Shown here piece after piece: positions 26,079-44,266 of a stretch of 64,000 bases of DNA. The stretch comes from an uncultured virus (IMG/VR IMGVR_UViG_3300024272_002111). Taxonomy: Duplodnaviria; Heunggongvirae; Uroviricota; Caudoviricetes. The notes beneath the pieces were generated by a model. That model was not told the origin of the DNA. It ran no database searches and saw nothing but the letters and a program-made list of their open reading frames with translations. The stretch is from IMG/VR virus record IMGVR_UViG_3300024272_002111; one strand, given 5' to 3'. The position numbers and the translations under genes were made by a program. Numbering within the stretch: the stretch's first letter is position 1; every line of letters begins with the position of its first letter.

Positions 26079-26084
26079 TTAATA

Positions 26085-27871: not shown

Positions 27872-27908
27872 CATAAAAAAGAGACATCAGATTTCTCTAA
27901 TGTCTCTC
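27872..27908 (-). terminator. Intrinsic terminator at the end of the small-gene array
   Basis: AGAGACATTAGA..TCTGATGTCTCT followed by T-tract on minus strand. Confidence 0.7.
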
Positions 27909-28003
27909 GGTGATCAAAGAATACTTTTATTCACATACGATAAACTTGTTTGTAAACCAGTTTACAAACAACTTCCTGTTGAATCAAATTTCACTTTTAT
28001 TGG

Positions 28004-28762
28004 CTACGCTGCATTATAATTTTTATCATTTCTAATATCAACTTTATACTTGTATAATGCATTATACACTTGCTCAGGAATTATTTCCTTATATTCATCT
28101 GCAACTTGCTTTATGTACTCTTCTTTTGCTTGGGCATATACTTCATAAGCATCCATAACTGTATCATAAACACCAAGCTCCCTTGTGTTGTATTTTGCCA
28201 AATAGCCATTCCCTTGCTGAACAATACCATTTGGTAATCCTCTGTTGTTTGATTTGTTCATGAAAATCATACTAATTCTTTGTGGTATTACTAAGCACCT
28301 ATTAGGAGCATATACTTTGTTACCAGGATACAGAATGTCTTTATCTACATGAAGTCTCTCATTAACATCATATTTATGAGCTTCATACCAATCTGCAAAA
28401 GTGTGAAAACATTGCCATTCACTACATACGGTTGAAGTTCCATAGTATGCTGGATATTTTTCTTTTTCCTTTTCGCCATAGCAACGAGCAATAATTTCAT
28501 GCCATATATTATATGTCCTTGATGTTTTATCATCTACTTTTGTTGGATGATCTCCAAGACCAATATAACCAACACCATGTACAATCCTATCATAAGGATT
28601 TTTTACTACGCCTCTTTTAAAGTTTTGATATGTTTGATGCTCTTTGATGTAATGGAATTCGTCTAAAAATTCAACATCAATATCTGCACTATTTTCATAT
28701 CTAATAATTCTCATTGGCGTTCCTCTTGTGTTTCTATTTATTTCATATAATCTTTCGTTCAA
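28004..28762 (-). CDS. HNH-like/AP2-type phage endonuclease-like protein, paralog 1
   Basis: W..I..RCY, VCSEW..F..F..W, HVDKDIL..GNKVYAP..CL. Confidence 0.65.
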   Translation of the reverse strand: MNERLYEINRNTRGTPMRIIRYENSADIDVEFLDEFHYIKEHQTYQNFKRGVVKNPYDRIVHGVGYIGLGDHPTKVDDKTSRTYNIWHEIIARCYGEKEKEKYPAYYGTSTVCSEWQCFHTFADWYEAHKYDVNERLHVDKDILYPGNKVYAPNRCLVIPQRISMIFMNKSNNRGLPNGIVQQGNGYLAKYNTRELGVYDTVMDAYEVYAQAKEEYIKQVADEYKEIIPEQVYNALYKYKVDIRNDKNYNAA

Positions 28763-28807
28763 TACTTACTCCTTTCATAAAAGTCAATAACACTAGAATT
28801 TGGTAGA

Positions 28808-29557
28808 CTATGCTGCCATCAAATTCTTATCATTTCTAATATCTACTTTGTATCTAAGCATAGCTTCATAAACATGTTCTGGTATCATATCTTTGTATTC
28901 TTCAGCTACTTGCTTAATATGATTCTCTTTTGCATTAGCATATGCTGAGTATGCACCTTCTAAAGAATCAAATATACCAAGTTCTACAAGATTGTATCTC
29001 GAAGAATATCCATCTCCCACCTGCATAACTCCATTCGGCAATCCTCTTTTATTCTCTTTATTGGTAAAGAGCATATTAATTCTCTGAGGAACTAATAAAC
29101 AAGTGTATGGAGAATAGATTTTATTTCCCGGATAAAGAATATCCTTGTCCAAATGCAATCTGCCTTCGCATTCATACTTATTTGCATCAAACCAATCAGC
29201 AAATGTCTGATAACATTTCCAATCTTCACAAACGGTACAAACATCATAATAAGCTTCGTAAATGTCTGAACGTCCTTCTTCGTAGCATCTGCCAATCATA
29301 TCGTGCCATGCATTATATGTACGCACTCTTTTATTATTAATCTTTGTTTGGTGTTTTCCTACGCCTAAATACCCGATCCCGTATACAGACTTATCATATG
29401 GATTTTTCATATTGCCCTTTTTAAAATTCTGATATACTGCATGTCTTACGACATAATTATGATCATCCATGAACATAACATCAATATCAGAACTACTTCC
29501 ATAACGGATAATTTTCATTGGCGTACCATATCTATTGTAATTTATTTCTCCTAACAA
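28808..29557 (-). CDS. HNH-like/AP2-type phage endonuclease-like protein, paralog 2
   Basis: Same motifs (HLDKDILYPGNKIYSP); colinear with 28004-28762. Confidence 0.65.
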   Translation of the reverse strand: MLGEINYNRYGTPMKIIRYGSSSDIDVMFMDDHNYVVRHAVYQNFKKGNMKNPYDKSVYGIGYLGVGKHQTKINNKRVRTYNAWHDMIGRCYEEGRSDIYEAYYDVCTVCEDWKCYQTFADWFDANKYECEGRLHLDKDILYPGNKIYSPYTCLLVPQRINMLFTNKENKRGLPNGVMQVGDGYSSRYNLVELGIFDSLEGAYSAYANAKENHIKQVAEEYKDMIPEHVYEAMLRYKVDIRNDKNLMAA

Positions 29558-29601
29558 TACAAACTCCTTTCATAAAATTAAAAGTGAAGGAAATCAGCCT
29601 T

Positions 29602-29988
29602 CTATCTTACCTCGTTTAATACCTCTTGATAGTATCCATAAGAATCATTTTTCCACAACTTCTCTGCTTCTTTAACTTTCTCCATAGTTTCCGGTGTAGG
29701 ATAGCCAAGAATTTCTCCAGCTAAAAATCCCTTACAATAATCGTCCCACATATGATCGCTGACAGAAATAGTTTCATCACAAATTCCATCTACTGTTTCA
29801 TCCATAATTTCATAGAATGCAAAATTAATATCACAACCATTATCTTCTGCGTAATCAACTATGATTTTAGCAAATGTTGCACAATCTTCACTGCCAGTCC
29901 ATTCACTAACTCTGTCATCATCTCTCTCATTTAATTCCATATCAAAGTAATAACCTACTTCCATTGCCTTTTTAAAAATATTATTCAT
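29602..29988 (-). CDS. Hypothetical acidic protein
   Basis: ORF with AGGAGG RBS directly after a motif A copy. Confidence 0.65.
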   Translation of the reverse strand: MNNIFKKAMEVGYYFDMELNERDDDRVSEWTGSEDCATFAKIIVDYAEDNGCDINFAFYEIMDETVDGICDETISVSDHMWDDYCKGFLAGEILGYPTPETMEKVKEAEKLWKNDSYGYYQEVLNEVR

Positions 29989-30017
29989 ATCATATACCTC
30001 CTAATCAAACCATTCTT

Positions 30018-30173
30018 CTATTTCATTCTACTAAGAATTTCTGTCTTCAATTTATCTACCTTAATCTGTAATTTATCAACTTCATCGAGTTTATTCTGTT
30101 CTGTTTTAATACTCATCCAGATTAAAGCCTTTTCTAATTCATTCAATAATTCTTCGTTTGATTTGTCTTTCAT
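30018..30173 (-). CDS. Small hypothetical protein (51 aa, below ORF-track cutoff)
   Basis: GGAGG RBS, MKDKSNEE..., TAG stop inside motif A. Confidence 0.55.
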   Translation of the reverse strand: MKDKSNEELLNELEKALIWMSIKTEQNKLDEVDKLQIKVDKLKTEILSRMK

Positions 30174-30205
30174 TACTACCTCCAACTTACGTACTAACTT
30201 GCGTA

Positions 30206-30436
30206 TTATCTTACTTTTACTAATTTGTAAAACTTTGTTTCGTCACCGCCACTAGAAAGCAATCTGTAAAACAACTGTTCTGCCGGAACCAAACTATTAA
30301 ATTCATAAGTCGCTGGCATCTTCCACATTGTTTTCATTCTGTTGGTAATATACACCTTATCACCATTGCAATATAATTCTTTTGCTTCTTCTTCTGAAAT
30401 CTCTATGTATTTATCCATATCATTCACCTCTACCAA
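30206..30436 (-). CDS. Hypothetical protein
   Basis: Likely start MDKYIE after GAGGTG. Confidence 0.6.
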   Translation of the reverse strand: MVEVNDMDKYIEISEEEAKELYCNGDKVYITNRMKTMWKMPATYEFNSLVPAEQLFYRLLSSGGDETKFYKLVKVR

Positions 30437-30445
30437 ATTAATCTT

Positions 30446-30682
30446 TTATTCAACCTCAATAACAATTTTAACACCATATCCAGTATCTTTAGGCATAGCA
30501 TATATATATGTAATTTCCATGTCTAAAATATCTTCAATATCAGAATGGTTCGCTTCTTCGAATTCATCACCTTCGGCATGAATTTGATATTCTTCAATAA
30601 TATCATCATACTCCTTAATTTGATACCCACCTTGAATTCTAATTCCCTGGTCTAATAAATCTCTAATACTCATATTTACCAC
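30446..30682 (-). CDS. Hypothetical acidic protein
   Basis: ORF track; stop inside motif A. Confidence 0.6.
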   Translation of the reverse strand: MVNMSIRDLLDQGIRIQGGYQIKEYDDIIEEYQIHAEGDEFEEANHSDIEDILDMEITYIYAMPKDTGYGVKIVIEVE

Positions 30683-30747
30683 CTCTCATCATATCACATT
30701 TTTCGAGCTATTTCCATATTTTTCTGGAAAGCAAATCCGTATTTTAT

Positions 30748-30951
30748 TTACACTAAATTGTGTTCCTTGCACAATCTACGCCAAACCATCGGGTTTAACT
30801 TACCATTAGTGTTAATGATAACTCTATCACCATTACTATTAACATAATGCCTATGGGAACTTGCTGTCTTTCTGTTCTTATCCCACTGATAACCATTCTT
30901 CCGTAAAATCTTTTCTGCATTTCGCCAATCAATCTGCTTGTAACTACACAT
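30748..30951 (-). CDS. HicA-like mRNA interferase domain protein
   Basis: AEKILRKNGY...SSH..Y pattern, 67 aa. Confidence 0.6.
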   Translation of the reverse strand: MCSYKQIDWRNAEKILRKNGYQWDKNRKTASSHRHYVNSNGDRVIINTNGKLNPMVWRRLCKEHNLV

Positions 30952-31138
30952 ACATACCTCCTATTTATCTTTCTGTAACAATTACTTCATCAATAAAATA
31001 ATTACATCCAAACTTATCTCGTGCGATCTTCTCCGCTTCTTCTGGACTGCTTGCCTCAATAAAATATTCATCACTCATTAAAAGTTTTACATCATATGTT
31101 TTCTTTTCAATATTTTGATTCGACATAATCTCAACCTC

Positions 31139-31558
31139 CTACCAAAACTTAAATTCTTCATTTGCTTTTTCAATAAGATCTACGTGAATTGCCTTAAAAT
31201 CTGTTGTATATTCCTTACATGCATTGATATGATTTTCTATATACTCTCCAAGTTCCTTCATGAAATCATCAATACTCATATTCTGTACCGGCTTATCCCA
31301 GCAGAAGCTGCATGAATCAGCATAATCGTATGGATATTCTTCATAATTCTTTTTATAACTATACCCATATCCACTATCAACACCGCCAACATATAAATCA
31401 AACCACAATCTGTTTCCCCAATTCAAGATATCAAAGCAAAGATTGCCAACTCTTGCAGATCCTATGTATTCAGCTTCACCATCTTCATCAGTGTACTCAT
31501 GCTGATGTTTCTTATAATCTTCAAATTCTTTTTCCATTAAGAACCATTTAATTTCCAT
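31139..31558 (-). CDS. Hypothetical protein
   Basis: ORF with GGAG RBS. Confidence 0.65.
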   Translation of the reverse strand: MEIKWFLMEKEFEDYKKHQHEYTDEDGEAEYIGSARVGNLCFDILNWGNRLWFDLYVGGVDSGYGYSYKKNYEEYPYDYADSCSFCWDKPVQNMSIDDFMKELGEYIENHINACKEYTTDFKAIHVDLIEKANEEFKFW

Positions 31559-31569
31559 CTAATCATCTC

Positions 31570-32094
31570 CTATTCCATATCTAAAATTGCATTATACTTG
31601 TTAGCATATTCATAGAAATCTTCCGTATCATCTGCCGTATAGTTACCCATAAAATCCTCATATGTCTTCCATTCACAATCGGAATCTTTAACACACTCAT
31701 CAAAATACTGCCTGGTAAAATCTACTGTTACCTCAATATCAGTCAGATTACTATCGTCATCATGTTCCTTAATTGTATCTTTGTAAACAGTAACCCATAC
31801 TGTGTCAAGATTATGTAACTCTTCCAATGTATCACACATCGCGGCCTTCAGCTTGTCCTGCCAGTCGGCCTTGTCAAAATCAATTTCATAATGAACAAAT
31901 GAGTTGTAATCGGTTTCCATGTGATCGGTTTCAGGATTAATTTCTGTTTTGTATATTGCGCAACAATTTTCACCGGAGTCAATACAGAAGTTATACTCAA
32001 CACCAATGTCGTTCAGCCAAACAAATGCTGCGCCCCACTCGTCGGTTTCAATATCTTTATAAGATTCATCTATATTACATTCAAATTCATACAT
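31570..32094 (-). CDS. Hypothetical acidic protein
   Basis: ORF with AGGAGG RBS. Confidence 0.65.
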   Translation of the reverse strand: MYEFECNIDESYKDIETDEWGAAFVWLNDIGVEYNFCIDSGENCCAIYKTEINPETDHMETDYNSFVHYEIDFDKADWQDKLKAAMCDTLEELHNLDTVWVTVYKDTIKEHDDDSNLTDIEVTVDFTRQYFDECVKDSDCEWKTYEDFMGNYTADDTEDFYEYANKYNAILDME

Positions 32095-32106
32095 AATATC
32101 TACCTC

Positions 32107-32391
32107 CTATCTATTTACGCCAAGTGTTTTCAAAACCTCATCTGCTTTATCATCTTCAAAATTTTCAATATGATTTACTAAATCATTTAATAACTCAATC
32201 GCCTTTTCGCAGCACATAATATCCTGAATCCAAGGATCTTCAGATTCATCTGTATAAGCCCCATCATACTCTTTATCAAGCTTTCCTTCATACGACTCTT
32301 TACCATATTCAATCAGACTTTCTAAATTAGAAATAACAGCCTCCAGCTTTACATTCTTTTTCTCTTCATTAATCCATTCTCTAACGGTCAT
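32107..32391 (-). CDS. Hypothetical protein
   Basis: ORF with GAGG RBS. Confidence 0.6.
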   Translation of the reverse strand: MTVREWINEEKKNVKLEAVISNLESLIEYGKESYEGKLDKEYDGAYTDESEDPWIQDIMCCEKAIELLNDLVNHIENFEDDKADEVLKTLGVNR

Positions 32392-32458
32392 ATTAACTAC
32401 CTCGCTTTTATCTTTATTTGTGCTTTATGTTATTCATCACCCAACAATTTAATTTTAT

Positions 32459-32941
32459 TTAGTTTTCAGTAGTCTTTGGAGTAATAAAACCTGTCCATCT
32501 CTTTCTTAAGAAATTTAAATAACCTTCAATACTTCCATCTTCATATGCATAAAAAGCATCTTCGTCATAACACCACCAAATAATTACTTCGTGGCCACTT
32601 GTTACATGACTAAACGTTGTATTGATATTATCTTTCACGGTCTTTTCTCCAGCACCGTTCTTAATTGCTTTTAAGTACAGATATCTTTGAAGATTTTCTA
32701 AATCTCGATCTGTCTGAACATCAAAAATCTCAACTGGACTATCATCACAACCTTCATCTAACATAGCATAAACACTAAGATAATTGGTATGCAACTTTTT
32801 AAGCTGCTTGCTTACTGCAAATAAAGCAGACTCTTCATATTTCTTACATTCTTCTTCATTTCGGAATACTGTTCCATCCTCTGCAATATATTCAACTCTT
32901 ACCACCTGCTCAACTGTTTTCTTAATTTCGTTTGTTCTCAT
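32459..32941 (-). CDS. Hypothetical phage protein
   Basis: YIAEDGTVF..EEEC..YE motif. Confidence 0.65.
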   Translation of the reverse strand: MRTNEIKKTVEQVVRVEYIAEDGTVFRNEEECKKYEESALFAVSKQLKKLHTNYLSVYAMLDEGCDDSPVEIFDVQTDRDLENLQRYLYLKAIKNGAGEKTVKDNINTTFSHVTSGHEVIIWWCYDEDAFYAYEDGSIEGYLNFLRKRWTGFITPKTTEN

Positions 32942-33171
32942 AATTTAAATCCTCACTTTCTTTTAATATTAGTTCTGTTCGTTTCTATTATAATGTTCTA
33001 TATCCTTCCAAGATGCAGTAACAGTTGCACCCAATACCGGATAATCATATGTTCTCTCAATTGTATCTGCAAATGCCTCTACTATTGTATCATCGTAATT
33101 ATCTTCCACCTCAATATCCATTGAAACCTGTATGATCATACTTTTTACCTCCATTCAAACGTCTCTTTGGG

Positions 33172-33570
33172 TTACACATAATATCCAACCGGTGTATCCA
33201 TTGTTAATTCATCTTCCATTTTGGTGATTTTGACAAATCTACCATACCAATTATTTGCTATTTCAAACGCCTCTTCTTCTGTAACGTCACCAATATAATC
33301 GTTACCTCGAACATCATATGCACCATCAAAATCTTCTTCACTCATAGCTAAATATTCTTCTAATGAAAAGTCCATGCCATCGGAATACTCTACAACTCGG
33401 TAAGTCAGAGTTTTATCTTCTTCGCCATGTTCGTTATATCCAGGGTCTCCGTTGGTATAAATATACCCACTAAAAGCAATTCGTTTTTTCCCATCCTGTT
33501 CATATATAGAGTAAAAATCACCTGCATTAAGCACTTCATCAATTGTTTTAAACAACATAATCATTTCCAC
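33172..33570 (-). CDS. Hypothetical acidic protein
   Basis: Bounded by motif A on both sides. Confidence 0.65.
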   Translation of the reverse strand: MEMIMLFKTIDEVLNAGDFYSIYEQDGKKRIAFSGYIYTNGDPGYNEHGEEDKTLTYRVVEYSDGMDFSLEEYLAMSEEDFDGAYDVRGNDYIGDVTEEEAFEIANNWYGRFVKITKMEDELTMDTPVGYYV

Positions 33571-33589
33571 CTTTCATCAAACGTCCATT

Positions 33590-33910
33590 TTATTCCAAAG
33601 GTATCCAACTAGAACATTCATCATTTCCATTTGTGATACCTGCATATTTCATGCAAACACCCTTGTTCTTATAAGAATAATCTCTTTCCCAACGGTTGCA
33701 TGTTTCACATCTCTGTTCACAAGGTTCCTCTTCTTCCCAAGCATCATCATTTACACACTCAACCTCGTACTCTACTTCTACTGGTAACTCCTTTAATGCA
33801 TTTTGAATTGTTGCCCAAGCTTTATCATAAGCTTCGTCAACACTTTCAGCTTCCTCATAAAAGGTTCCCTCTGTTAAATGAAATGTGACCGCAAATTCAT
33901 ATTCTTTCAT
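33590..33910 (-). CDS. Hypothetical protein with C-terminal Cys cluster
   Basis: CETC..C..C. Confidence 0.6.
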   Translation of the reverse strand: MKEYEFAVTFHLTEGTFYEEAESVDEAYDKAWATIQNALKELPVEVEYEVECVNDDAWEEEEPCEQRCETCNRWERDYSYKNKGVCMKYAGITNGNDECSSWIPLE

Positions 33911-33919
33911 AATTACCTC

Positions 33920-34189
33920 CTAGTCAACATCTACAATATAAAATTCTGTTGTATCTTCATCAGCCCAAGTAATAAGAGCAATATCTTCTTCACACCAACA
34001 GTTTTCTTCATCCAACGGATCGTCTATTTCTCCATTTAAATTATCAGCAATAATATCGTTATAAAAATCTTCCCACGCTTTTCTTAAAGCATCTTCAGAT
34101 GTTTCATTTTCTTTCACTCTAATAACTTCAGGCATTGCTTCACCCATTTCCATATCATGATACTTTTTGTAAATCAAAATTACTTTCAT
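33920..34189 (-). CDS. Hypothetical acidic protein
   Basis: AGGAGG RBS after motif A. Confidence 0.6.
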   Translation of the reverse strand: MKVILIYKKYHDMEMGEAMPEVIRVKENETSEDALRKAWEDFYNDIIADNLNGEIDDPLDEENCWCEEDIALITWADEDTTEFYIVDVD

Positions 34190-34230
34190 AATCCTCTACC
34201 TCCTAATCAAATGTGAGTTTGATTTAGTTG

Positions 34231-34473
34231 CTATCTAATACTCAACTCATCTTCGAAAACATCATTTTCAGTTCCATCATTAAATCTGCACTTGTACATA
34301 TATCCAACATCGTCAATATCACATTCCAAGTTTGTTAACGGTCTGATGATTTCAACTTCTGTTCCGTTGTACTGTAATAAATCTGTATCTGTTGTAGTAA
34401 ATATAAATTTCATTCCGTTTTCTAACATAATAATTACCTGCCTTTCATCAAATACGAGTTTGATTAACACCAA
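34231..34473 (-). CDS. Hypothetical protein
   Basis: Likely start MLENG downstream of motif A at 34447. Confidence 0.6.
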   Translation of the reverse strand: MVLIKLVFDERQVIIMLENGMKFIFTTTDTDLLQYNGTEVEIIRPLTNLECDIDDVGYMYKCRFNDGTENDVFEDELSIR

Positions 34474-34820
34474 CTAAACGGTTTCTGTTGTCCATTTGCT
34501 ACATAATCTTCATTGCTTGTCTTACAAATATGTAACCAATCATTAACCATTGCTTCGGCGGATTCATATTCATAATGTCTAAGTTCTCCATCTGCTGTTT
34601 CTCTTTCAATATTCTTACCGAAGAACTTGTAATACTTCTGATGCCAGTCTTGATAATAACCATTGTTAATTACAATGTTACCTTTCTTGTTCCATGCAAA
34701 TCCATAACCATAAAAGCTACAGATTTCTGCCATCTGTTCTTCTGTTTCGCTCCACTGCTTACCGGTTTCTCTTTCATAATCTTCTCTTACATCTAAATCA
34801 ATAATGCTATCCATATTCAT
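34464..34820 (-). CDS. Hypothetical protein
   Basis: Bounded by motif A on both sides. Confidence 0.65.
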   Translation of the reverse strand: MNMDSIIDLDVREDYERETGKQWSETEEQMAEICSFYGYGFAWNKKGNIVINNGYYQDWHQKYYKFFGKNIERETADGELRHYEYESAEAMVNDWLHICKTSNEDYVANGQQKPFSWC

Positions 34821-34851
34821 TCTCCTTTCATGGACAAAATTCCGATTTGAT

Positions 34852-35244
34852 TTACTTTACTACCTTTACATTCTTCCCTAATACCTTACAAATCTCTTCT
34901 ACGGTCATTTCAACTGTATCATTGTTTTGATTATCCCTATCATAAATCAGCTCTGCAAATCTATCAGTCCATGAAAACTCTTCATTCTCTAACATTGATG
35001 CTAAATTTGTCATATGCTTTTGTGTCCAAATTTTCATAACATCGTACTTGGAGCAATACTTATTTATTGCACTATCTGTCTGTAACGTATGTTCGTCTTG
35101 ATAGTCAGTTGAATAAGTTAAATTCTCATTATAACTACTCAAACACATGTGCCCCAAATAACCAATTAAATAACCATCAACAACAAGGTATTTAACGCCA
35201 CTTCTTAACTCCACAATCATTCCACTTTTTAAAATACTTTTCAT
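34852..35244 (-). CDS. Hypothetical phage protein
   Basis: LKSGMIVELR...EMTVEEICKVLG pattern; bounded by motif A. Confidence 0.65.
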   Translation of the reverse strand: MKSILKSGMIVELRSGVKYLVVDGYLIGYLGHMCLSSYNENLTYSTDYQDEHTLQTDSAINKYCSKYDVMKIWTQKHMTNLASMLENEEFSWTDRFAELIYDRDNQNNDTVEMTVEEICKVLGKNVKVVK

Positions 35245-35282
35245 ACTAATTCCTCCTAATCAAATCCCAATTTGACTGCCAC

Positions 35283-35930: not shown

Positions 35931-35968
35931 AATTCATTCTCCTTTCATCTAATCAAATCTTGCTTTGG

Positions 35969-36142
35969 TTAACACCAAATCCCTAATCTGTACATTAAAT
36001 CATACAGACCATGGTAAAAATCTGTTTCATGATATTCACTATCTTCATCACAAACGCTTTCTAAAACATCATCTGCTTTAGTTAATGCGTTAACTAATTC
36101 TCTTTTCTGTTCCTCAGATAATCTGTTTACCAATTCTTCCAT
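35969..36142 (-). CDS. Small hypothetical protein (57 aa)
   Basis: AAGGAGG RBS, MEELVNRL...; bounded by motif A on both sides. Confidence 0.55.
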   Translation of the reverse strand: MEELVNRLSEEQKRELVNALTKADDVLESVCDEDSEYHETDFYHGLYDLMYRLGIWC

Positions 36143-36170
36143 ATCAACGCCTCCTTATAGAATCATTATT

Positions 36171-36605
36171 CTATTCATCCTCATTTGGCCAGTATCCAAG
36201 TAAATTTGCATTCAGTTCAATCATCTCAATCTGCTCATAATTCTCTTCATAATCAAGATTAAATTTATCCATAAGCCGATTCCAATTGTAACCAGTAACA
36301 TCACTCTTATAAATTTCAATACTCTGTGTTGACGCATTTGGAACATGTAAGTAATTGATAATGTATGGTAAGAAATCATCAATCTGATTTGTTTCATTAC
36401 AAATCTTAACTGCTGTTCTTATCAATGCCTGAACAAATGCATCAGACATGAATGCACTACCAGTAACTTCCTTAATCTCCTCTTCAGTAATCTCTTTTAC
36501 ATTTTCCCAACCCTTATCCATGATGTATGTAACCACTGTCATTGCTACATGTTCATCAAAGTACTTCCGAATAATATCTCTTACGTTGTCTCCTGCTAAT
36601 TTCAT
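36171..36605 (-). CDS. Hypothetical protein
   Basis: ORF with GAGGAGG RBS. Confidence 0.65.
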   Translation of the reverse strand: MKLAGDNVRDIIRKYFDEHVAMTVVTYIMDKGWENVKEITEEEIKEVTGSAFMSDAFVQALIRTAVKICNETNQIDDFLPYIINYLHVPNASTQSIEIYKSDVTGYNWNRLMDKFNLDYEENYEQIEMIELNANLLGYWPNEDE

Positions 36606-36620
36606 ATCTTTTTCCTCCTC

Positions 36621-37142: not shown

Positions 37143-37151
37143 GGTTCCTCC

Positions 37152-37469
37152 TTAAATCATCTTGTAAACTGCTTTCATAATGTCATTGATAATAGATACA
37201 CCACTATCACCTTCAACACTCTGGTATGTAGCGAAGATATCACTTTGCTTACCCCAGCTTAACTGAACTTCTTCACGAGGATCATCACGCTTATTTAGCT
37301 CTCTGTCAGATTCATGGAATGTAATGCTAATTATTTGTCTTTTTCCATATTCATCCGGTTCTGTATAAGTCCGTTCTGCCCAACCATACTTAATATTGAT
37401 ACCCTCACAAGCTCTTGTTGTTCTTAACAATGCTTCTAAATCCTTAATAATCTGTAATCTGTTTTCCAT
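37152..37469 (-). CDS. Hypothetical protein
   Basis: VEGDSG motif; RBS. Confidence 0.6.
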   Translation of the reverse strand: MENRLQIIKDLEALLRTTRACEGINIKYGWAERTYTEPDEYGKRQIISITFHESDRELNKRDDPREEVQLSWGKQSDIFATYQSVEGDSGVSIINDIMKAVYKMI

Positions 37470-37481
37470 AGTTAATCCTCC

Positions 37482-38042
37482 TTATTGCAACGCAGCAAAG
37501 TTTTTTGAAGCCACTCTAAATCCGTTTTCTTTCAATAACTTTATTGCCTTTTCAGTATCTCTTTTTACTTTATTATTATGACTGTCAATTAACTTGTGCA
37601 TTTTGTCATAATCTTCAGATTCATAATATGCATGCTTAAATTCAAATCGTAATTTTGCAGTTTCTTTCGCATGTTCTAAACCTTTATTAGTCCATACTTG
37701 TGAGAAGTGATAGTAAGCCGGGTCTTTTACTAAGAAAACATAACATTTATCTTCAATTGGCTTTAAAATATCTCTTACTGATTTTGCAAAATCACTATCA
37801 TAAGATGCAATTTTATGTAATTCACTATAAGAATTTATATAATCAACATCTATATTTTCAGAAAATATCAAATATCCAATTCTGTTTGCCCATGTAAATC
37901 CTTTATTAAAATAGCTTCCGCCGCTATCACACTCTGTAAATACACACCAACCATTTTCTTTAATTGCTTTTGCCTGGTCGTTATTTAATTCTGATATTGA
38001 CATATACTTAATCATAATTTTTCCTCCATTTCTGTGAACCAA
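37482..38042 (-). CDS. Hypothetical protein
   Basis: Likely start MIKYM after GGAGG. Confidence 0.6.
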   Translation of the reverse strand: MVHRNGGKIMIKYMSISELNNDQAKAIKENGWCVFTECDSGGSYFNKGFTWANRIGYLIFSENIDVDYINSYSELHKIASYDSDFAKSVRDILKPIEDKCYVFLVKDPAYYHFSQVWTNKGLEHAKETAKLRFEFKHAYYESEDYDKMHKLIDSHNNKVKRDTEKAIKLLKENGFRVASKNFAALQ

Positions 38043-38051
38043 ACTTTCATT

Positions 38052-38507
38052 TTATTCACCCTCTCTCTTTAACAACTCAAGCATATCTATTCTGTACTGC
38101 TCGATCTGTTCTGCTGTTATCCATTCAGGCTTATCCTCATTGGAAAATGATTCATATAACTTCTTCATTTCGTCACAATGTTTGTTCACTTCCTTAAAGT
38201 ACAGATGTCCTTCATAGCCATTTCCGTATCCTAAGAAATACTTACAATCACTCTGATATCTACTAAGCATCATGTAATCAAATTCTCTTACATGTCTCAC
38301 AAACGGCTCATCACATTCAACCGGTTCCTCAATATGTCTATTCGGTTCGCCACAAATATCTCCATCTTCCGGATGTCTGTAAGCACCTGTATGAAGATAT
38401 AAACCACCTCTACCATCATTCAAATCGAAATAAATCTTTCCGTTTTCATCTTCGTAACAAGGATATTCCATATATCCACCGCCAAAACCTATATACTTAA
38501 CCTTCAT
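38052..38507 (-). CDS. Protein with C-terminal LPD11-like domain
   Basis: YMMLSRYQSDCKYFLG...KPEWIT.EQI; start MKVKY after GAGGAGG. Confidence 0.65.
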   Translation of the reverse strand: MKVKYIGFGGGYMEYPCYEDENGKIYFDLNDGRGGLYLHTGAYRHPEDGDICGEPNRHIEEPVECDEPFVRHVREFDYMMLSRYQSDCKYFLGYGNGYEGHLYFKEVNKHCDEMKKLYESFSNEDKPEWITAEQIEQYRIDMLELLKREGE

Positions 38508-38508
38508 C

Positions 38509-38955
38509 TTAATATTCCTCCTTATAAAATCTGATTGTACGTTCCTTTTCAGCTTCATAATCTTCTCTGTTACTATAAGGACATAATGTGATATCTCCTT
38601 CACAATATGTAAATACTGCCATCTGCTCATCAGAGTAAGCATAAGAAGAATAACCATCAATCTGATGTAATACAAAGTCACACTTGGCAGCGAACGCATA
38701 ACACAAATCATCCAACCAATGACCACTTAACATATAATCGCCTTCTCTGTTTGTGGTTTCCTCGGTGAAATTAATGTTTACAATTCTCTGTGTGGTTTCA
38801 TTCAAGTGATAAGCAGAGAAATCAATCGGTAAAATCTCATATTCATCATCCTTTGGGATTCTTCCAGTTTCTCTAATCATGTTATAATAATCATTCCGTT
38901 TAATTTTCTGTGCTGCCATCTTATTTACCTCCATGTAATCTAAACCATAATGCAC
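38509..38955 (-). CDS. Hypothetical protein
   Basis: Likely start MAAQK; YCEGD motif. Confidence 0.6.
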   Translation of the reverse strand: MHYGLDYMEVNKMAAQKIKRNDYYNMIRETGRIPKDDEYEILPIDFSAYHLNETTQRIVNINFTEETTNREGDYMLSGHWLDDLCYAFAAKCDFVLHQIDGYSSYAYSDEQMAVFTYCEGDITLCPYSNREDYEAEKERTIRFYKEEY

Positions 38956-39157
38956 CCTGCATAAACTGTATCAAGCCTTCTACACTCTGCGAATGACAAA
39001 TCATATCTTCCATCATGTGCTTCGTGTTTGCTTTGTAGATGTAATATCCGTCGCTTCCCTTATAGAAATCAACTGGTGTTACACAATTTTCAAAACCAAT
39101 TAAAGCACCCTTACCATAAGAATCTGTGCTAATCTTCTCTCTAATCTTATCTGCCAT
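38921..39157 (-). CDS. Hypothetical protein
   Basis: ORF with AAGGAG RBS. Confidence 0.55.
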   Translation of the reverse strand: MADKIREKISTDSYGKGALIGFENCVTPVDFYKGSDGYYIYKANTKHMMEDMICHSQSVEGLIQFMQGALWFRLHGGK

Positions 39158-39159
39158 AA

Positions 39160-39429
39160 TTATCTCTCCTTTATCTCTGCTAACATATTGTCAATGCACA
39201 ACATTAAGTTCTCTTCCATGTTTTCCTTAGCCATTTCTAAATGCTCTTTAATCTGCTGACGAATTTCTTTCTTAGTTACGTTATGTCCGTAGTTTGCAAC
39301 CACTTCATCAATGATTTCCTTGTAGGTAAATCCAAGAAGTAAATCATCATTCATATGAATTGGCAAATCATAAGTAAATTCCTTACCATTTCTTTCATCT
39401 ATTTCCGGGTCATACATCCATCTACTCAT
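39160..39429 (-). CDS. Hypothetical protein
   Basis: ATGA overlap with upstream gene. Confidence 0.6.
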   Translation of the reverse strand: MSRWMYDPEIDERNGKEFTYDLPIHMNDDLLLGFTYKEIIDEVVANYGHNVTKKEIRQQIKEHLEMAKENMEENLMLCIDNMLAEIKER

Positions 39430-39878
39430 ACTCTAACCGCCTTTCTATTTTCATATCTCTCTTGCATTCTGTTTAAGAACTCTTGATATTCCTCTGTAAA
39501 TTCTATTTTCTTTCCTGTCTCAAAAACATAATTCTTATTACGTCCATATATCCAACACTTGTCTATTGGATTCCAACTCATATAACAATGCCAATACCAA
39601 TTTGAAAGACATATAATCAAGCTCTGTCTCTGTGTGCATGTCAATCTTTTTATTCCTGAGAAGTCGCTTCCCATATACATTTCTTTAGGAATGACACCAT
39701 TATGGTGATCCTCAATCAAAAGGTTTTGCATTTCTGGAGTTATAATGTTATGCCAAAAGTTATCATCTTTATCTCTATTGCCTTGTTTGTCTTCAAGCCA
39801 ACTATGATATACATCTCCATCAATTGCCCAAACTCTCATACTTTGATTACAAACCTCATACTTACCTAAGATTTCCAT
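39426..39878 (-). CDS. Hypothetical protein
   Basis: ORF track, RBS. Confidence 0.6.
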   Translation of the reverse strand: MEILGKYEVCNQSMRVWAIDGDVYHSWLEDKQGNRDKDDNFWHNIITPEMQNLLIEDHHNGVIPKEMYMGSDFSGIKRLTCTQRQSLIICLSNWYWHCYMSWNPIDKCWIYGRNKNYVFETGKKIEFTEEYQEFLNRMQERYENRKAVRV

Positions 39879-39945
39879 CTTATTTTCCGCCTTTCGTTTT
39901 AATTATGTTTAGTTTCGTGACTAAACCAAATTTAAGATTTATTAC

Positions 39946-40482
39946 CTATGCTGCTTCAATTCTTTTTAACAAGTCGTCTGTTTCTAACTCATAAAATTCG
40001 CCAATGCTATCTTGTTTTTCTGTATCATATACATCATACCCTTCTCTAAATAGGTTTATATCTGCTACATATCTATCATTTATGTCTTTCATTTGTGTCA
40101 TGGATTCCAAGTAGAATAAATCATCAAAATGATCAAACTTGACTGCAAAATAATCTGAATAACCACCACGAATATCACCGAAAAGATGAACCATGAATAA
40201 CATTACTCCACAATTCTTTTTGTAATTCATGTTCAAGTCATTACAAATATTCGCTCCCCAATTATATGTATTATCTCCCTCGGAATCTTCTCTGAATTTT
40301 TCAATCCATTCGTCAGATACATTAATTTCGTATTCTTTCAATTCTTCAAGAAGTGGAAGAATATCCCCACAGATAACATCATTTCTAATATTCCCATCGT
40401 CATCAAAAATCCAAGCTCTATGATTTTTATCTACCAAACGAATGGATTTCACTTGTTCAATTACTCTATCTAATCTACTCAT
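39946..40482 (-). CDS. Hypothetical phage protein
   Basis: NTYNW, H..GDIRGGY motif. Confidence 0.65.
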   Translation of the reverse strand: MSRLDRVIEQVKSIRLVDKNHRAWIFDDDGNIRNDVICGDILPLLEELKEYEINVSDEWIEKFREDSEGDNTYNWGANICNDLNMNYKKNCGVMLFMVHLFGDIRGGYSDYFAVKFDHFDDLFYLESMTQMKDINDRYVADINLFREGYDVYDTEKQDSIGEFYELETDDLLKRIEAA

Positions 40483-40656
40483 TTGCGTTCCCTCCGTTTC
40501 TTATCTGTTCCGCCTACATCTTCAGGCTTAATCTTACATCCGTACTTTGCAGATACTAGACCGGCTATATCTGCCTTTGTAAGTCTGACATGTAATTCTC
40601 TTTTTGTGTTCGTTCCATACAACGTCATGTTATATCCTCCTTTTAATTAAGTGCAG

Positions 40657-41526
40657 TTAGGCTATGGCTTCTAAACTATCAAACACCTTGTCAAAACCTG
40701 CTTCTAATGCAATTTCTTCAATCAAATCATCGCCCCATTTACTAGAATAGAATCCCCAACAAGAATCCGTGTTTTCATTCCACTCATCATCTTCTGCGTC
40801 AATAAGCTCATCAATGATATAACCATAACATTCTCCCTGTAGATACATGTCATATTCTTTGACTTCGCTTTTAAGCCACTTGTAAGCAGCATCTTTCCAA
40901 TTCTTATCAGTAACTTTAATCCAATTACCTTTCTTTGATTGTATTTTCCCACCACACTTAAAAATTTCTTCTTTTGTGGTATAAATCCAACCGGCCTGAC
41001 CACTATCCCATGGACATGAAAAACCACCAATATTCATTGTAATTCCACTATGTTCATAGATATATAATGGCAAACTATAAAACCCTTCGCTCTCAAGCAA
41101 CTTCCATTTATCCTCAAAGTTCATAGCATCAATGATATCATCAACAAGATAGTCAATTGGATAGTTACTTTCAATTACACCATGATGTACTTCGTTACCA
41201 GTCCACCAATATCTATAATAACCCCAAAGTTCCCATAAGTTTTCGCTTCGGTTATACTTCAGTTCTAATCCATTAGATGTCTTACCGGACTTCACAAAGT
41301 TAATAATTTTCTTTTCGGAAACGTGATATCTTACCAAGTGATTCAAGAAATCTTCAGGCTCCTTAAATTCATTTTTATCTCCAAGATCATATCTATTCCA
41401 CCAACACATCATGTGACCAATATTACCATCCCAATCAACTCTAGGATTAAGTGGCTCACTATCTTGTTCGACGTGGATTCTATAAATTTTACCTTGATAA
41501 TCCTTTGCGTATTTATATTCTCTCAT
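40657..41526 (-). CDS. Conserved hypothetical phage protein
   Basis: LPLYIYEHSG..M...WDSGQAGWIY..DSCWGFY; start MREYK after GGAGG. Confidence 0.7.
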   Translation of the reverse strand: MREYKYAKDYQGKIYRIHVEQDSEPLNPRVDWDGNIGHMMCWWNRYDLGDKNEFKEPEDFLNHLVRYHVSEKKIINFVKSGKTSNGLELKYNRSENLWELWGYYRYWWTGNEVHHGVIESNYPIDYLVDDIIDAMNFEDKWKLLESEGFYSLPLYIYEHSGITMNIGGFSCPWDSGQAGWIYTTKEEIFKCGGKIQSKKGNWIKVTDKNWKDAAYKWLKSEVKEYDMYLQGECYGYIIDELIDAEDDEWNENTDSCWGFYSSKWGDDLIEEIALEAGFDKVFDSLEAIA

Positions 41527-41527
41527 C

Positions 41528-41734
41528 TCAACAACCTCCTGCTGTACACATAAAATCATCCGGTACAAATGTAATATCTTTAAACAGTTTCTTAATAAGC
41601 TCGTTGGATATCTCATCCGGAGCTTCTGCAACTTCACTCATATAAGGATATCTTCCTTCGCTATGAGCTAAAGCACATACATAATTTACTTTTAATTCAT
41701 CAAGCTGATCCTGATTTAAATCGTTTACGCTCAT
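41528..41734 (-). CDS. Hypothetical protein
   Basis: ORF with AGGAGG RBS. Confidence 0.6.
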   Translation of the reverse strand: MSVNDLNQDQLDELKVNYVCALAHSEGRYPYMSEVAEAPDEISNELIKKLFKDITFVPDDFMCTAGGC

Positions 41735-41743
41735 GTTGACCTC

Positions 41744-41980
41744 CTATAATGGCTTTAACTTTACCTGTCCTTTGTATATGGACAATCTACTTGTTACATA
41801 CATATCCTGTGAAAAGTCATAATCATAAACATGCCAGATTTCATCATCATTTTCGAGTCTGAATTTCACATCATTCATAATCTTACAAATCTTATTTGCA
41901 CTTGAATCAGGAACAAAGAATGCATTCTGTTTAGAGTGAAAGAATTCCGTTCCCTTTCGTGTCTTAGCTATCAGTTTCAT
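41744..41980 (-). CDS. Hypothetical protein
   Basis: AAAGGAG RBS after motif A. Confidence 0.6.
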   Translation of the reverse strand: MKLIAKTRKGTEFFHSKQNAFFVPDSSANKICKIMNDVKFRLENDDEIWHVYDYDFSQDMYVTSRLSIYKGQVKLKPL

Positions 41981-42017
41981 TTAATCACTCCTTTCAGTGA
42001 ATAGAAGTAGAATTTTA

Positions 42018-42383
42018 TTACCAGTCTTCTTCATCTTCGTCCGGTTTGCTAAACCAATCTGTTTCTTTAAGTTTCTTTGATTTATATAAAGACTTTCTCG
42101 AAACATCAACTTTTTTCAAATGACTCTGTTCAATTGCACCAACTGTAAAATGATAATCATTGTACTGTACAGTTGCCTGATACACTGGATATGCAAAAGT
42201 ATCCCAACCACAACTAATATATTCGTAGTCTGTATCTGTATCACTAGCAAAGTCTAAAGCCATTGCTCTGACTTTCTCTTTCATTTGTTCTTCTGTTCCG
42301 TTGAATGTGTGTAAATCCAATCCATCAGAATCAGTTGCGATTCCGTAAATGTAATACTTCATAACCATTTTCCTCCTAACCAA
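42018..42383 (-). CDS. Hypothetical protein
   Basis: Bounded by motif A; likely start MVMKYY. Confidence 0.6.
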   Translation of the reverse strand: MVRRKMVMKYYIYGIATDSDGLDLHTFNGTEEQMKEKVRAMALDFASDTDTDYEYISCGWDTFAYPVYQATVQYNDYHFTVGAIEQSHLKKVDVSRKSLYKSKKLKETDWFSKPDEDEEDW

Positions 42384-42392
42384 ATGAAACTT

Positions 42393-42842
42393 TTATTCAT
42401 AATACTCTGTTTCAAATTCAAAACGAATTTCATAATCATTTTCGCCATCGTAAAGTTCACATATGCCAATACAATCACTAAAAGTATCCTCATTGCATAA
42501 TTTCAAATTCTCTTCACTATCATTTACCGGATAAATACCAACTATAAATTCTGTTCCCATTTGTAGCAGCTCGGCTATTCTCTTAATAGGGAACATCTCA
42601 TCAACTTCTTCTTCGGATAAATCGTACAAGTCAATTTCACTTCCATTTGTATTGTTATATAAAACCCACGGAATTAAATCACCCTTACATCGACAATCTA
42701 AACTGTTTGGATCATAGTCAATGTCTCCATGAATGTCTAATGTCAATTCAAAGTTTTGTCTATCTTCCACATAAGATACCTTTAACCAGTCGGGTGTATA
42801 TCCTATATTGTTTTTACTTTTTGCGTTTAGATATAATCTCAT
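42393..42842 (-). CDS. Hypothetical acidic protein
   Basis: Bounded by motif A on both sides. Confidence 0.65.
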   Translation of the reverse strand: MRLYLNAKSKNNIGYTPDWLKVSYVEDRQNFELTLDIHGDIDYDPNSLDCRCKGDLIPWVLYNNTNGSEIDLYDLSEEEVDEMFPIKRIAELLQMGTEFIVGIYPVNDSEENLKLCNEDTFSDCIGICELYDGENDYEIRFEFETEYYE

Positions 42843-43213
42843 ATCTCTTACCTCCGTTTAATCAAATATAATTTCTATTTCCATCCATTGTCCTTTTTCA
42901 TTTCCTCTGCATACTGCATAAGTGCTTCAACCACTTCTGCAACGTTTGTGTCATTGTCGTCTGCAATCTTTTCAAGTTCCTTTGCTTCAATGTCATATAC
43001 AGTAATATTTGTCATATGTTATACCTCCGTTTCTTTAACCGGAATCAACTTTCCGCTGTCAATCAACTCATTCAAGCGTTTTTCACTTATATACTCTTCG
43101 ATTGAGAACAACGTAGAATTGTCATTTCCATAACCAGTTCCTTCAACGGTAATAATAAATTTCTGTCCCTTTTCAATTTTCATAATTCTATACCTCCTAA
43201 TAAAATGCGGGTT

Positions 43214-43687
43214 CTATTTGCTCATTTCGTAACACATTGCTTCAAAATATTTCCCAACTTCATCAAATTTTTCCTTGTTAATATTCCAAGGCATAACAAT
43301 CATAACTATTGAATCGGTTGAGCCATCACTCCACTTCTCTGTTTCTTCTCCAAGGATAACATCGTACTCTGGATACTTATTTGAGCAATCAACGGCTTTT
43401 TCTTTGGCAATCTGAATAAGGTTCTCATACGTCATTTCTAAATCTTCTGCATATCCCTTATCATATCCTGCCTCAAAAGCAATCCCGTATCTGCCATTAA
43501 ACTCTACGAGATAGCATCTAAGACCGTAAACGCCCTCACACCACAGCTCGTTATATGCATGTTGCAATTCCTTCGGCAAATCCTCAACCTTATCGATGTC
43601 GTACTCCCCGTTGTGGTGTAAGTCTCCACAACTATTACTCCAGTATAAAAAGTTTCCGCCTAACTCATTTTTAAATTCATATAACAT
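43214..43687 (-). CDS. Hypothetical acidic protein
   Basis: Bounded by motif A on both sides. Confidence 0.65.
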   Translation of the reverse strand: MLYEFKNELGGNFLYWSNSCGDLHHNGEYDIDKVEDLPKELQHAYNELWCEGVYGLRCYLVEFNGRYGIAFEAGYDKGYAEDLEMTYENLIQIAKEKAVDCSNKYPEYDVILGEETEKWSDGSTDSIVMIVMPWNINKEKFDEVGKYFEAMCYEMSK

Positions 43688-43721
43688 ATCTTTTTCCTCC
43701 TAATAAAATGTTGGTTTGGTC

Positions 43722-43982
43722 TTACCATCCATTAGAATCAAAACCATAATTGTTATTGATATCAAAATCTTTATGCATAATGATTTCACTTTCCTCAATA
43801 TGCAATTCTCCTGCCCATAACTCTGTATACGGCTTATCATAAACATGAGGATTACTATACTTTTCTACATAAGCTTCCGCATCTACTTTACTTTCGAAGA
43901 TTGCTACCAAATCGGTACAACTAACTGCATCTCCGAATCCACCATCTACATCATAATTGTGAAATACACTATAAGTTTTCAT
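43722..43982 (-). CDS. Hypothetical protein
   Basis: Bounded by motif A on both sides. Confidence 0.6.
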   Translation of the reverse strand: MKTYSVFHNYDVDGGFGDAVSCTDLVAIFESKVDAEAYVEKYSNPHVYDKPYTELWAGELHIEESEIIMHKDFDINNNYGFDSNGW

Positions 43983-44011
43983 TTTCTCTTTCCTCCAATC
44001 AAATAAGGTTT

Positions 44012-44227
44012 TTATAATCCTTTTTTCTGTTGCTTTCTCAACTGTTCAATACTTGATACACATAAATAATTAAGTCCTTTTGCTTTAAGTTCCGCATTGA
44101 GAGTGTCAATGTTTTTAAATTCAGAAAACTTGATACACATTTCGCATCGTTTACTTCCGGTTCTCCATCGTGTACAGTTATAACATCCTACCTCGTCAGG
44201 CTTTAAATGCTCCCTTCCTTTTACCAT
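44012..44227 (-). CDS. Small Cys-containing protein
   Basis: Start MVKGRE after AGGAGG; CxxC..C..C; bounded by motif A. Confidence 0.55.
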   Translation of the reverse strand: MVKGREHLKPDEVGCYNCTRWRTGSKRCEMCIKFSEFKNIDTLNAELKAKGLNYLCVSSIEQLRKQQKKGL

Positions 44228-44266
44228 CGCTATTCCTCCTATACAATCAAACAATGTTTTGATCAT

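Follow-up and report, generated by a model that had tools for sequence, protein, structure and literature searches.

Ordered 18-bp junction sites with position-specific spacers: possible linkers for gene exchange in a distant SPbeta-like phage

In an uncultured virus of the Caudoviricetes (IMG/VR record IMGVR_UViG_3300024272_002111), small genes are separated by 18-bp sites, each made of two inverted 6-bp arms around a 6-bp spacer, and spacers found here reappear at gene junctions of related phages in unchanged order, next to unrelated genes. The window analysed is a stretch of 64,000 nucleotides, bases 18022-82021 of an 83,601-base viral contig (labelled G000; about 55% complete by rating); positions refer to the window unless another sequence is named. 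The region of main concern is 27913-44263, where every gene lies on the minus strand. G000 is a distant SPbeta-like phage, because its 989-aa protein matches the YonO RNA polymerase (33-38% identity to that of SPbeta, phi3T, SPR, Perkons and others). We propose, with doubt and confidence about equal, that the 18-bp sites are recombination linkers for the exchange of single-gene cassettes and that the spacer is a position label.

On the minus strand the layout reads stop codon, AYMRAA-N6-TTYKRT, 0-10 nt, GGAGG, about 8 nt and start codon. Sites were counted with a strict pattern (arms A[TC][CA][AG]AA and TT[TC][GT][AG]T), and spacers are given as read on the gene (minus) strand. The initial annotation of the stretch had described 22 copies with an invariant gap of 6. 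All seven copies that it quoted lie where it placed them, and the 18 strict sites of the region, together with the clear loose copies at 33154, 35259 and 29588, come close to its count. The gap of 6 is indeed enriched: with the same arms, 25 copies occur in the window, 18 of them within 27,900-44,300, versus 0-3 copies in the window and 0-1 in the region for each gap of 0-5 and 7-14. On the whole contig a gap of 6 is found 43 times and the other gaps from 2 to 10 are found 1-4 times each, and a narrower pattern gave 32 copies versus 3 when it was reversed. The limits first drawn around the array, 27913 and 44263, were too narrow, as seven sites lie elsewhere in the window and 18 on the contig beyond it. 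Site density is high among small genes of unknown function and low in the replication genes, and no strict site was found in the plus-strand gene cluster at 50.9-64 kb. The bacterial comparison gave 16 matches in total across 80 loci of 2.6-22 kb.

The position of the sites relative to the genes is regular, as had been claimed for the stop codon on one side and the ribosome-binding site on the other. A Shine-Dalgarno (SD) core follows 31 of the 43 strict sites of the contig on the minus strand versus 1 of 43 on the plus strand, and within the region it lies no more than 18 nt downstream at 15 of the 18 strict sites. About half of the junction copies have the stop codon, TAA or TAG, within the left arm; in the remainder it immediately precedes an ATCAAA or ACCAAA arm. 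The spacers of the 43 strict sites are all different, in agreement with the original statement that none is repeated. In 170 junction sites from six contigs the information content is found in six bases per arm, with little at positions -8 to -2 and from +18 onwards, and the spacer composition is near random except that a purine is favoured at the last base.

The arms have the behaviour neither of a promoter or terminator nor of a hairpin in RNA. In the region there are 81 promoter-like sites versus 82.3 +/- 8.0 in shuffles, which bears out the description of the site-bounded units as one or a few promoterless, co-oriented genes, and terminator-like sites number 2 versus 3.6 +/- 1.9. The central arm pair (L3/R4) forms in 71 of the 170 sites versus 72.8 with shuffled partners, the observed value being reached in 1318 of 2000 shuffles, so that the early judgement that the arms are not an mRNA hairpin stands. 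Folding of the 18-mers yields -0.34 kcal/mol on average, with at least four pairs in only 45 of the 170. Counting perfect 6-bp inverted repeats of any sequence near ribosome-binding sites did not have the sensitivity to tell motif-rich phages from motif-poor ones.

Comparison with the reversed pattern as control revealed the motif in a number of other phage sequences: 17 versus 1 copies in both G001 and G004, 14 versus 0 in G005, 11 versus 0 in G008, 26 versus 1 in G009, 13 versus 0 in G011 and 6 versus 0 in G012. The peak at gap 6 is seen in G001, G004, G005, G008, G009 and G011. Enrichment is marginal in G006, G010 and Perkons, and absent in G002 (7 versus 4) and G003 (3 versus 3). The same control gave 16 versus 2 for SPbeta, 16 versus 2 for phi3T, 17 versus 1 for SPR and 16 versus 1 for Goe14; SPbeta, SPR and phi3T carry a sparser version of the motif.

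Only 13 of the 154 open reading frames of G000 have a relative in G001 (blastp E <=1e-3), and the replication proteins of the two phages are 21-29% identical. Twelve junction sites of G000 reappear in G001 with an identical six-base spacer; in these pairs the sites are identical at 14-18 of 18 bases and the 60-nt flanks at 13-30 of 60 on one side and 12-24 of 60 on the other. Across 144 junction sites from eight sequence sets, 22 of the 118 distinct spacers were found in at least two phages, and 12 of the 18 strict sites of the region have a same-spacer junction in a related phage. Relative to the mean for shuffled spacers, 10 spacers versus 1.13 (maximum 5) are shared by G000 and G001, 7 versus 0.54 by G000 and G005, 7 versus 0.35 by G001 and G004, 3 versus 0.35 by G000 and G004, and 3 versus 0.14 by G001 and G005, while pairs with G009, G011 or SPbeta share 0-1. 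Because the spacer composition is near random, this sharing is not due to a small repertoire of spacers.

The order of the shared spacers is kept, and all seven that are common to G001 and G004 stand in one order. The spacers had been called hypervariable; none is used twice in a genome, but from phage to phage they are conserved and specific to their position. The arrays are as follows.

Array A (G001 and G004; G000 from gaatgg on): gacggg, gaatgg, ggctga, ttctag, gtgaaa.
Array B (G000, G001, G005): acctta, ccaaca, cccgca, tccatg ... attata, gtttca, ttctac ... tgaaag.
Array C (G000, G001): taatga, tcggaa, ctcgta, then c/ttcaca.

In G005 the spacers of two adjacent junction sites (reverse-strand index 19693-19991) are tccatg and tccata, one base apart, which may reflect a duplicated slot. 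The sites of the window and the genes that fill two of the slots are given below.

44246..44263, minus strand: junction site, spacer acattg; perfect palindromic arms; no counterpart found.
43998..44015, minus strand: junction site, spacer acctta, array B; same spacer at G001 and G005 junctions; the left arm carries the stop codon of gene 44012-44227 and the SD lies 1 nt past the right arm.
43703..43720, minus strand: junction site, spacer ccaaca, array B; 18 of 18 bases identical in G001; spacer also in G005.
43200..43217, minus strand: junction site, spacer cccgca, array B; identity with G001 17/18, flanks 30/60 and 14/60.
42861..42878, minus strand: junction site, spacer attata, array B; spacer in G005, order kept.
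42379..42396, minus strand: junction site, spacer gtttca, array B; spacer also in G005.
42001..42018, minus strand: junction site, spacer ttctac, array B; spacer also in G005.
38038..38055, minus strand: junction site, spacer tgaaag, end of array B; spacer also in G005.
36157..36174, minus strand: junction site, spacer taatga, array C; spacer also in G001.
35952..35969, minus strand: junction site, spacer gcaaga.
35259..35276, minus strand: loose junction site, spacer ttggga; left arm starts with G.
34834..34851, minus strand: junction site, spacer tcggaa, array C; spacer also in G001.
34447..34464, minus strand: junction site, spacer ctcgta, array C; spacer also in G001.
34206..34223, minus strand: junction site, spacer ctcaca; perfect arms; the collinear G001 site has ttcaca.
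33576..33593, minus strand: junction site, spacer tggacg.
33154..33171, minus strand: loose junction site, spacer gagacg.
30432..30449, minus strand: junction site, spacer gattaa.
30004..30021, minus strand: junction site, spacer gaatgg, array A; spacer also in G001 and G004.
29588..29605, minus strand: junction site, spacer ggctga, array A; right arm degenerate; the first HNH gene lies downstream of it; G001 and G004 share the spacer.
28786..28803 (derived coordinates), minus strand: degenerate site, spacer ttctag, array A; between two HNH genes; collinear counterparts intact in G001 and G004.
27983..28000, minus strand: site, spacer gtgaaa, array A; follows the second HNH gene; G001 and G004 share the spacer.
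27913..27930, minus strand: site, spacer gtattc; no SD after it.
3438, 10779, 14556, 16499, 18335 and 18449, minus strand: six strict sites outside the region; five of the six without an SD core within 18 nt.
49862..49879, minus strand: strict site in the strand-switch region; no SD after it.
28004-28762 and 28808-29557, minus strand: two paralogous HNH endonuclease genes, in the slots ttctag to gtgaaa and ggctga to ttctag, respectively.

An identity profile was made for 28 pairs of shared sites, after removal of two spacers (one a site shifted by one base, the other an SD-like chance match). Upstream, from -30 to -1, between 5 and 15 of the 28 pairs are identical at each position; downstream, from +18 to +47, the range is 5-14, with a single position at 17. 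The fourth base of the right arm is identical in just 10 of the 28 pairs, and the variable arm positions agree no better than they do in the motif family generally. The arms are thus not co-inherited at shared junctions, as is expected if they travel with the flanking genes. Among the proteins flanking 30 site pairs none gave a blastp E <0.1, upstream or downstream, the best value being 0.13.

Arrays A and B hold one gene per slot, and the occupants of three successive slots of array A measure 128/104/68 aa, 249/81/117 aa and 252/67/59 aa. The slot from ggctga to ttctag is filled by an HNH endonuclease in G000 (phrog_953, E 7e-50), by a phrog_14479 protein in G004 (E 6e-10) and by a protein without a family in G001, and the HNH-filled slots of G000 contain small unrelated genes in G001 and G004. 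No PHROG family match was obtained for 11 of the 16 slot occupants scanned. Since the stop codons of unrelated upstream genes lie in or against the left arm, and the SD sequences of unrelated downstream genes 0-10 nt past the right arm, the breakpoints fall inside the 18-mer or a few bases away, and since an intact site remains after replacement they are in register. Whether gene replacement between relatives breaks at the sites had been set beforehand as a test of the original proposal, and likeness does end at the edges of the 18-mer. Based on these comparisons, the sites are older than the genes they separate, because replacement breakpoints must fall at the sites and leave them intact. The persistence of spacers by position argues against a pure operator or RNA role.

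SPbeta and SPR were compared by means of blastn alignments of at least 200 nt and at least 75% identity, which begin or end at 5 of the 16 SPbeta sites:

SPbeta 12495: yokL/yolA.
SPbeta 57147: yonH/yonI.
SPbeta 99497: yorD/yorE.
SPbeta 113663: yorT stop/mtbP.
SPbeta 128076: yosU/yosV.

At all five, likeness starts or ends no more than 3 bases from the edge of the 18-mer. Random endpoints would hit 0.21 sites (maximum 2 in 500 trials), and endpoints limited to gene-junction zones 0.74, versus the 5 observed (P ~0.001). The comparison of phi3T with SPR gave 3 sites versus 0.82 expected (P 0.05). Only 5 of the 71 SPbeta-SPR alignment endpoints are at sites, and in the Bacillus phages the sites are one class of boundary among several. 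Two sites of SPbeta (NC_001884.1, 113663 and 132746) are followed by a near-identical AT-rich stretch of about 18 nt and then the SD, which suggests a longer conserved unit in the Bacillus phages.

Under the linker reading, the sites would join cistrons, in the approximately 30 nt that separate a stop codon from the next ribosome-binding site. When related phages meet, DNA would be exchanged inside the site and in register, the replaced unit running from the right arm through the SD and a single gene with its stop codon up to and including the next left arm, and the neighbouring genes would remain expressed. The two 6-bp arms would be the common recognition part and the 6-bp spacer the position label, with exchange only between same-spacer junctions; site order would in this way be kept and intragenomic deletions between sites avoided. 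We infer that a spacer match would be required and that a dedicated breakage-and-rejoining enzyme would perform the exchange. The leading candidate for the type of enzyme is a tyrosine recombinase acting on a 6-bp overlap; tyrosine recombinases require matching overlap regions. The linker could take two forms, namely (a) an enzyme that needs matching spacers and (b) general recombination that works on the 18 identical bases. The strict inverted arms, the unique spacers of each genome and the preserved order are better explained by form (a), and form (b) better accounts for left arms that are degenerate at some Bacillus boundaries and for the enzyme not having been found. The most specific version is that SPbeta-like phages practise a natural recombinase-mediated cassette exchange, in which a phage or host enzyme cuts and rejoins within the spacer, at matched spacers only, and dozens of heterospecific sites divide the accessory regions into numbered single-gene slots; we regard it as possible, if on the unlikely side.

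The window encodes one enzyme that had been put forward for this role.

25065-26057 (25065-26078 in the initial annotation), minus strand: Xer-like tyrosine recombinase; a candidate only, as nothing ties it to the sites.

The protein looks intact, with the Arg, His-x-x-Arg, His and Tyr motifs recognised by eye, and its best models are XerA, XerS and XerD, each below the cut-off. Scores against integron integrase models were 46.5 bits versus a cut-off of 265 (TIGR02249) and 27.3 versus 435 (NF011946). G001 and G011 encode a different tyrosine recombinase. In the window the gene stands in a row (22814-26318, minus strand) with a 77-aa gene, a gene for an unknown 426-aa protein (phrog_5732) and one for an MrpR-like protein that has the MrpR N-terminal domain. 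The recombinase, 426-aa and MrpR-like genes recur in G004, and the 77-aa gene recurs beside the different recombinase in G001. By position and domain matches the row looks like a counterpart of yopP-yopQ-mrpR of SPbeta, although no direct match to yopP or yopQ was shown and SPbeta has no match to the recombinase. The available part of PMC10516654 describes yopP-yopQ-mrpR as core genes of the SPbeta phage family.

Several observations weigh against the sites being labelled exchange points. The clade comprises about three phages, G004 and G005 are 29-kb fragments, and the names of G001, G004 and G005 contain one sample number. The shared junctions were selected by their identical spacers, so that the conservation of spacers relative to arms is partly built in, and blastp on proteins of 30-250 aa may miss very remote homology. 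Genes are not tied to slots, since a 106-aa gene between two G005 sites has a 47.6% identical relative at a site-free place in G001. The 6-bp arms are short compared with the arms of 9-13 bp in known tyrosine recombinase sites. Relatives of the 25065-26057 recombinase are present in the motif-poor G010, G002 and G006 and were not found in the motif-rich G009, G008, G011, G012 and G001 or in SPbeta, a distribution against the link between this enzyme and the sites that had been suggested at first. No protein family tracks the motif in a family table of 13 phage sequences; G002 is the only clean negative in this survey and several contigs are incomplete, which makes the co-occurrence result weak either way. 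Among the Bacillus phages, the other four of the six directed comparisons gave 0-2 sites and no significant excess of endpoints, the six comparisons, which are not independent, sum to 12 versus 4.2 expected, and at some boundaries the left arm is degenerate in one phage. The ends of the phi3T/phi3Ts replaced fragment, as given in the available part of bioRxiv 10.1101/2020.05.06.055103, are not at sites.

An unlikely alternative, but one that shares its comparative facts with the linker reading, is that the sites have some other primary job, such as protein binding on DNA or a stop/ribosome-binding-site context, and are merely patches of short identity for general recombination or template switching. 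The spacer would then be unread, and the sites would persist since each replacement keeps them and gene turnover exceeds point mutation. Co-occurrence and family searches found no dedicated enzyme, the degenerate left arms at some Bacillus boundaries are what imprecise joining would leave, and the share of SPbeta-SPR endpoints at sites (5/71) implies that most exchange takes place elsewhere. Yet the arms and SD common to all junctions would form non-allelic patches, from which scrambling and deletion would be expected, whereas the order is kept; the inverted pair with its strict 6-nt gap is left unexplained; and 18 identical bases are very short for efficient homologous exchange. The patch explanation is favoured by hybrids made in the laboratory from phi3Ts and SPbeta: according to the available part of bioRxiv 10.1101/2020.05.06.055103, regions of homology contain 15 of their 16 recombination sites.

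Improbable, in our assessment, is the alternative already named in the initial annotation, an operator array for a dimeric regulator, here taken to have no role in recombination, which could involve the MrpR-like or YopP-like protein of 22814-26078. Inverted half-sites that vary independently around a fixed gap would suit such a regulator, and one protein of the window carries the N-terminal domain of MrpR; in the available part of PMC10516654, the SPbeta repressor MrpR has a recombinase fold and binds the repeated SPBRE. An operator would, however, need no particular spacer, yet the spacers are ordered between phages with unrelated flanking genes, and the 43 sites are found within operons, after a stop codon and before an SD, and not at promoters, promoter-like sequences being at the shuffled level. 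SPBRE is reported from about 10 promoter regions in the part of that source that was available, and of the five SPbeta sites (out of 16) that were inspected by annotation only one, before yorE, adjoins a MrpR target listed there. More doubtful still, and in our view very improbable, is an mRNA element, either a small hairpin or an A-rich/U-rich stop/SD context that tunes translational coupling or mRNA processing. Its merits are the constant place between stop codon and SD on the coding strand and a few copies with perfect stems of 6-7 bp (34206, 44246). The central arm pair forms no more often than with shuffled partners, however, the mean folding energy is small with few copies reaching four pairs, and there would be no reason for position-wise conservation of the loop between phages.

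Searches of wider collections added little variation to these comparisons. With 1 mismatch in 20 kb, contig IMGVR_UViG_3300018878_000194 represents the same phage as G000 and is therefore uninformative on variation. The exact 18-mer of the junction at 43703 has five loci in the collection, namely this twin contig, G001 and three chance matches. A nucleotide search of the phage collection with 33000-37000 found no relatives, the only match to the protein of 36621-37142 was in a distant Roseobacter phage, and collection searches with two cassette proteins found no relatives. Relatives of the 215-aa protein (80 loci) are mostly without the motif, and a scan with the pattern of the gaatgg site gave chance matches among the matches listed, in both metagenome and viral contigs. 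One metagenome contig, Ga0172381_10069236 (2974 bases), matches the motif pattern ten times within 3 kb, in no case with an SD after it, and may represent a different repeat family.

The whole stretch, or part of it, is contained in eight faecal or gut metagenome runs; no RNA runs were listed. Read-level data consisted of Logan contigs at a depth of 2-5 only, which did not demonstrate any excised circles. Contig joints that abut sites (43720 to 43992, 35244 to 43990 and 27934 to 27983) have shorter sides of 20-27 letters and may therefore stem from other phages that share the site; they were not used as evidence. Across the tandem HNH genes (28004-29557), contigs of other organisms in faecal runs join at a depth of 15-27. 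The closest bacterial relatives of the ligase, host ligA genes at 42-50% identity, are from Lachnospiraceae and other Clostridia, which may be a weak hint at the host. The search of bacterial genomes with the ligase recovered no prophage with the motif.

The remaining gene content of the window includes DNA polymerase III alpha, RecJ-like, primase/DnaB-like, NAD-dependent ligase and PnuC/NadR-like genes, in addition to the trio of tyrosine recombinase, unknown protein and MrpR-domain protein. Other features are as follows.

53890-56859, plus strand: homologue of the YonO-type single-subunit RNA polymerase (phrog_8308, E 5.5e-165); in several Bacillus relatives the YonO-type gene is split by an inserted gene.
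52698-53900 and 58979-61074, plus strand: cluster of CoiA-like nuclease, beta-CASP/RMMBL (RNase J or CPSF-like) and ClpP-like protease genes.
18463-22327, minus strand: adjacent NAD-related genes for a PnuC-like transporter, a NadR-like protein (cytidylyltransferase and AAA_28) and the NAD-dependent DNA ligase.
12685-13875, minus strand: TnpB/IS605 OrfB-type gene within the minus-strand block, with HTH_OrfB_IS605, OrfB_IS605 and Cas12f1-like TNB domains.
10793-12478, minus strand: methyl-accepting chemotaxis protein carried by the phage, domains 4HB_MCP, HAMP and MCPsignal; a copy of the motif extends over the stop codon.

Whether phage mosaics arise by exchange at special linkers, or by exchange anywhere with selection removing the failures, has long been debated. 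If the 18-bp sites are exchange points, they offer a concrete and testable linker mechanism, and they would explain how large temperate phages renew small accessory genes, likely those for host takeover and counter-defence, without breaking operons. They would also provide a rule for locating exchangeable slots in metagenomic phages. If, in particular, cassette exchange takes place, co-infecting relatives would swap genes slot by slot, with order and expression kept. As SPbeta, phi3T and SPR carry the sparser motif, the idea is testable in Bacillus subtilis with existing genetics.

The nearest described system, as far as the available part of its source goes, is the promoter-early stem-loop (PeSL) cassette of T4-type phages, in which small genes lie between repeats of a promoter-terminator unit, through which shuffling and the formation of mini-circles take place (Arbiol et al. 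2010, PMC2839356). As presented there, PeSL elements resemble the present sites in being short intergenic repeats on either side of small dispensable genes, within the variable parts of a large phage genome, with gene insertion, deletion and replacement between relatives mapping to the elements. They differ in being promoter and terminator units, which the present sites are not (81 versus 82.3 and 2 versus 3.6, respectively), and in having near-identical copies that recombine within one genome into mini-circles, whereas the present sites are 18 bp long, have individual spacers and are ordered between genomes. Breakpoints at the elements were found in the G000 clade and partly in the Bacillus phages. 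Comeau et al. (2014, PMC4122927) reportedly also dealt with the PeSL cassettes of T4-type phages.

Integron cassettes share with the sites the promoterless, mostly single-gene arrays in one orientation, the imperfect inverted repeats and a tyrosine recombinase nearby. Their attC sites are imperfect palindromes that contain paired core sites and span about 55-140 bp, far longer than the 18 bp to which conservation is limited here, and it is as folded single strands that they recombine. Since integron cassettes are inserted at attI, they keep no fixed order, unlike the present sites. The recombinase of the window also scores far below the IntI cut-offs and matches Xer models best. The initial interpretation is thus supported in part: the evidence does not support an integron-like array, the recombinase link or the hypervariable spacer, whereas it does support the site-bounded promoterless units, the non-hairpin arms and the breakpoints at sites.

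The dif-like sites of pdif modules (Acinetobacter plasmids, XerC/XerD) have inverted arms and a 6-bp centre and bound small mobile gene modules, and the recombinase of the window is Xer-like, though without co-occurrence with the motif. Xer sites have 11-bp XerC and XerD arms of defined sequence, whereas conservation here stops at 6 bp per arm, and pdif modules are scattered among plasmids and do not form an ordered array with position-specific centres. In logic the sites are like the heterospecific lox or FRT sites of recombinase-mediated cassette exchange, where common arms, matching spacers and a different spacer on each side of a cassette give ordered replacement without deletion; that system is a laboratory design, whereas spacer matching and recombinase action are only presumed here. 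In Botstein's modular theory of phage evolution, related phages are said to recombine at short conserved 'linker' sequences between exchangeable modules. Such linkers are patches of homology between multi-gene modules, whereas the present units are single genes and the linkers are palindromic with individual centres.

Within the same phage family, the SPBRE of SPbeta is a 15-bp repeated motif bound by MrpR at about 10 promoter regions (PMC10516654, available part). Both are short repeats, the binder has a tyrosine-recombinase fold and the window encodes an MrpR-like protein; SPBRE lies in promoter regions and the present sites at stop/SD junctions, and the two were told apart by location, not by sequence, on the basis of that text. 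No description of such junction sites in SPbeta-like phages was found in searches of the open-access literature, including the available parts of PMC8270828, PMC10516654 and bioRxiv 10.1101/2020.05.06.055103. The sites are set apart from the known systems by their spacers, which are position-specific, ordered between phages and outlive the intervening genes.

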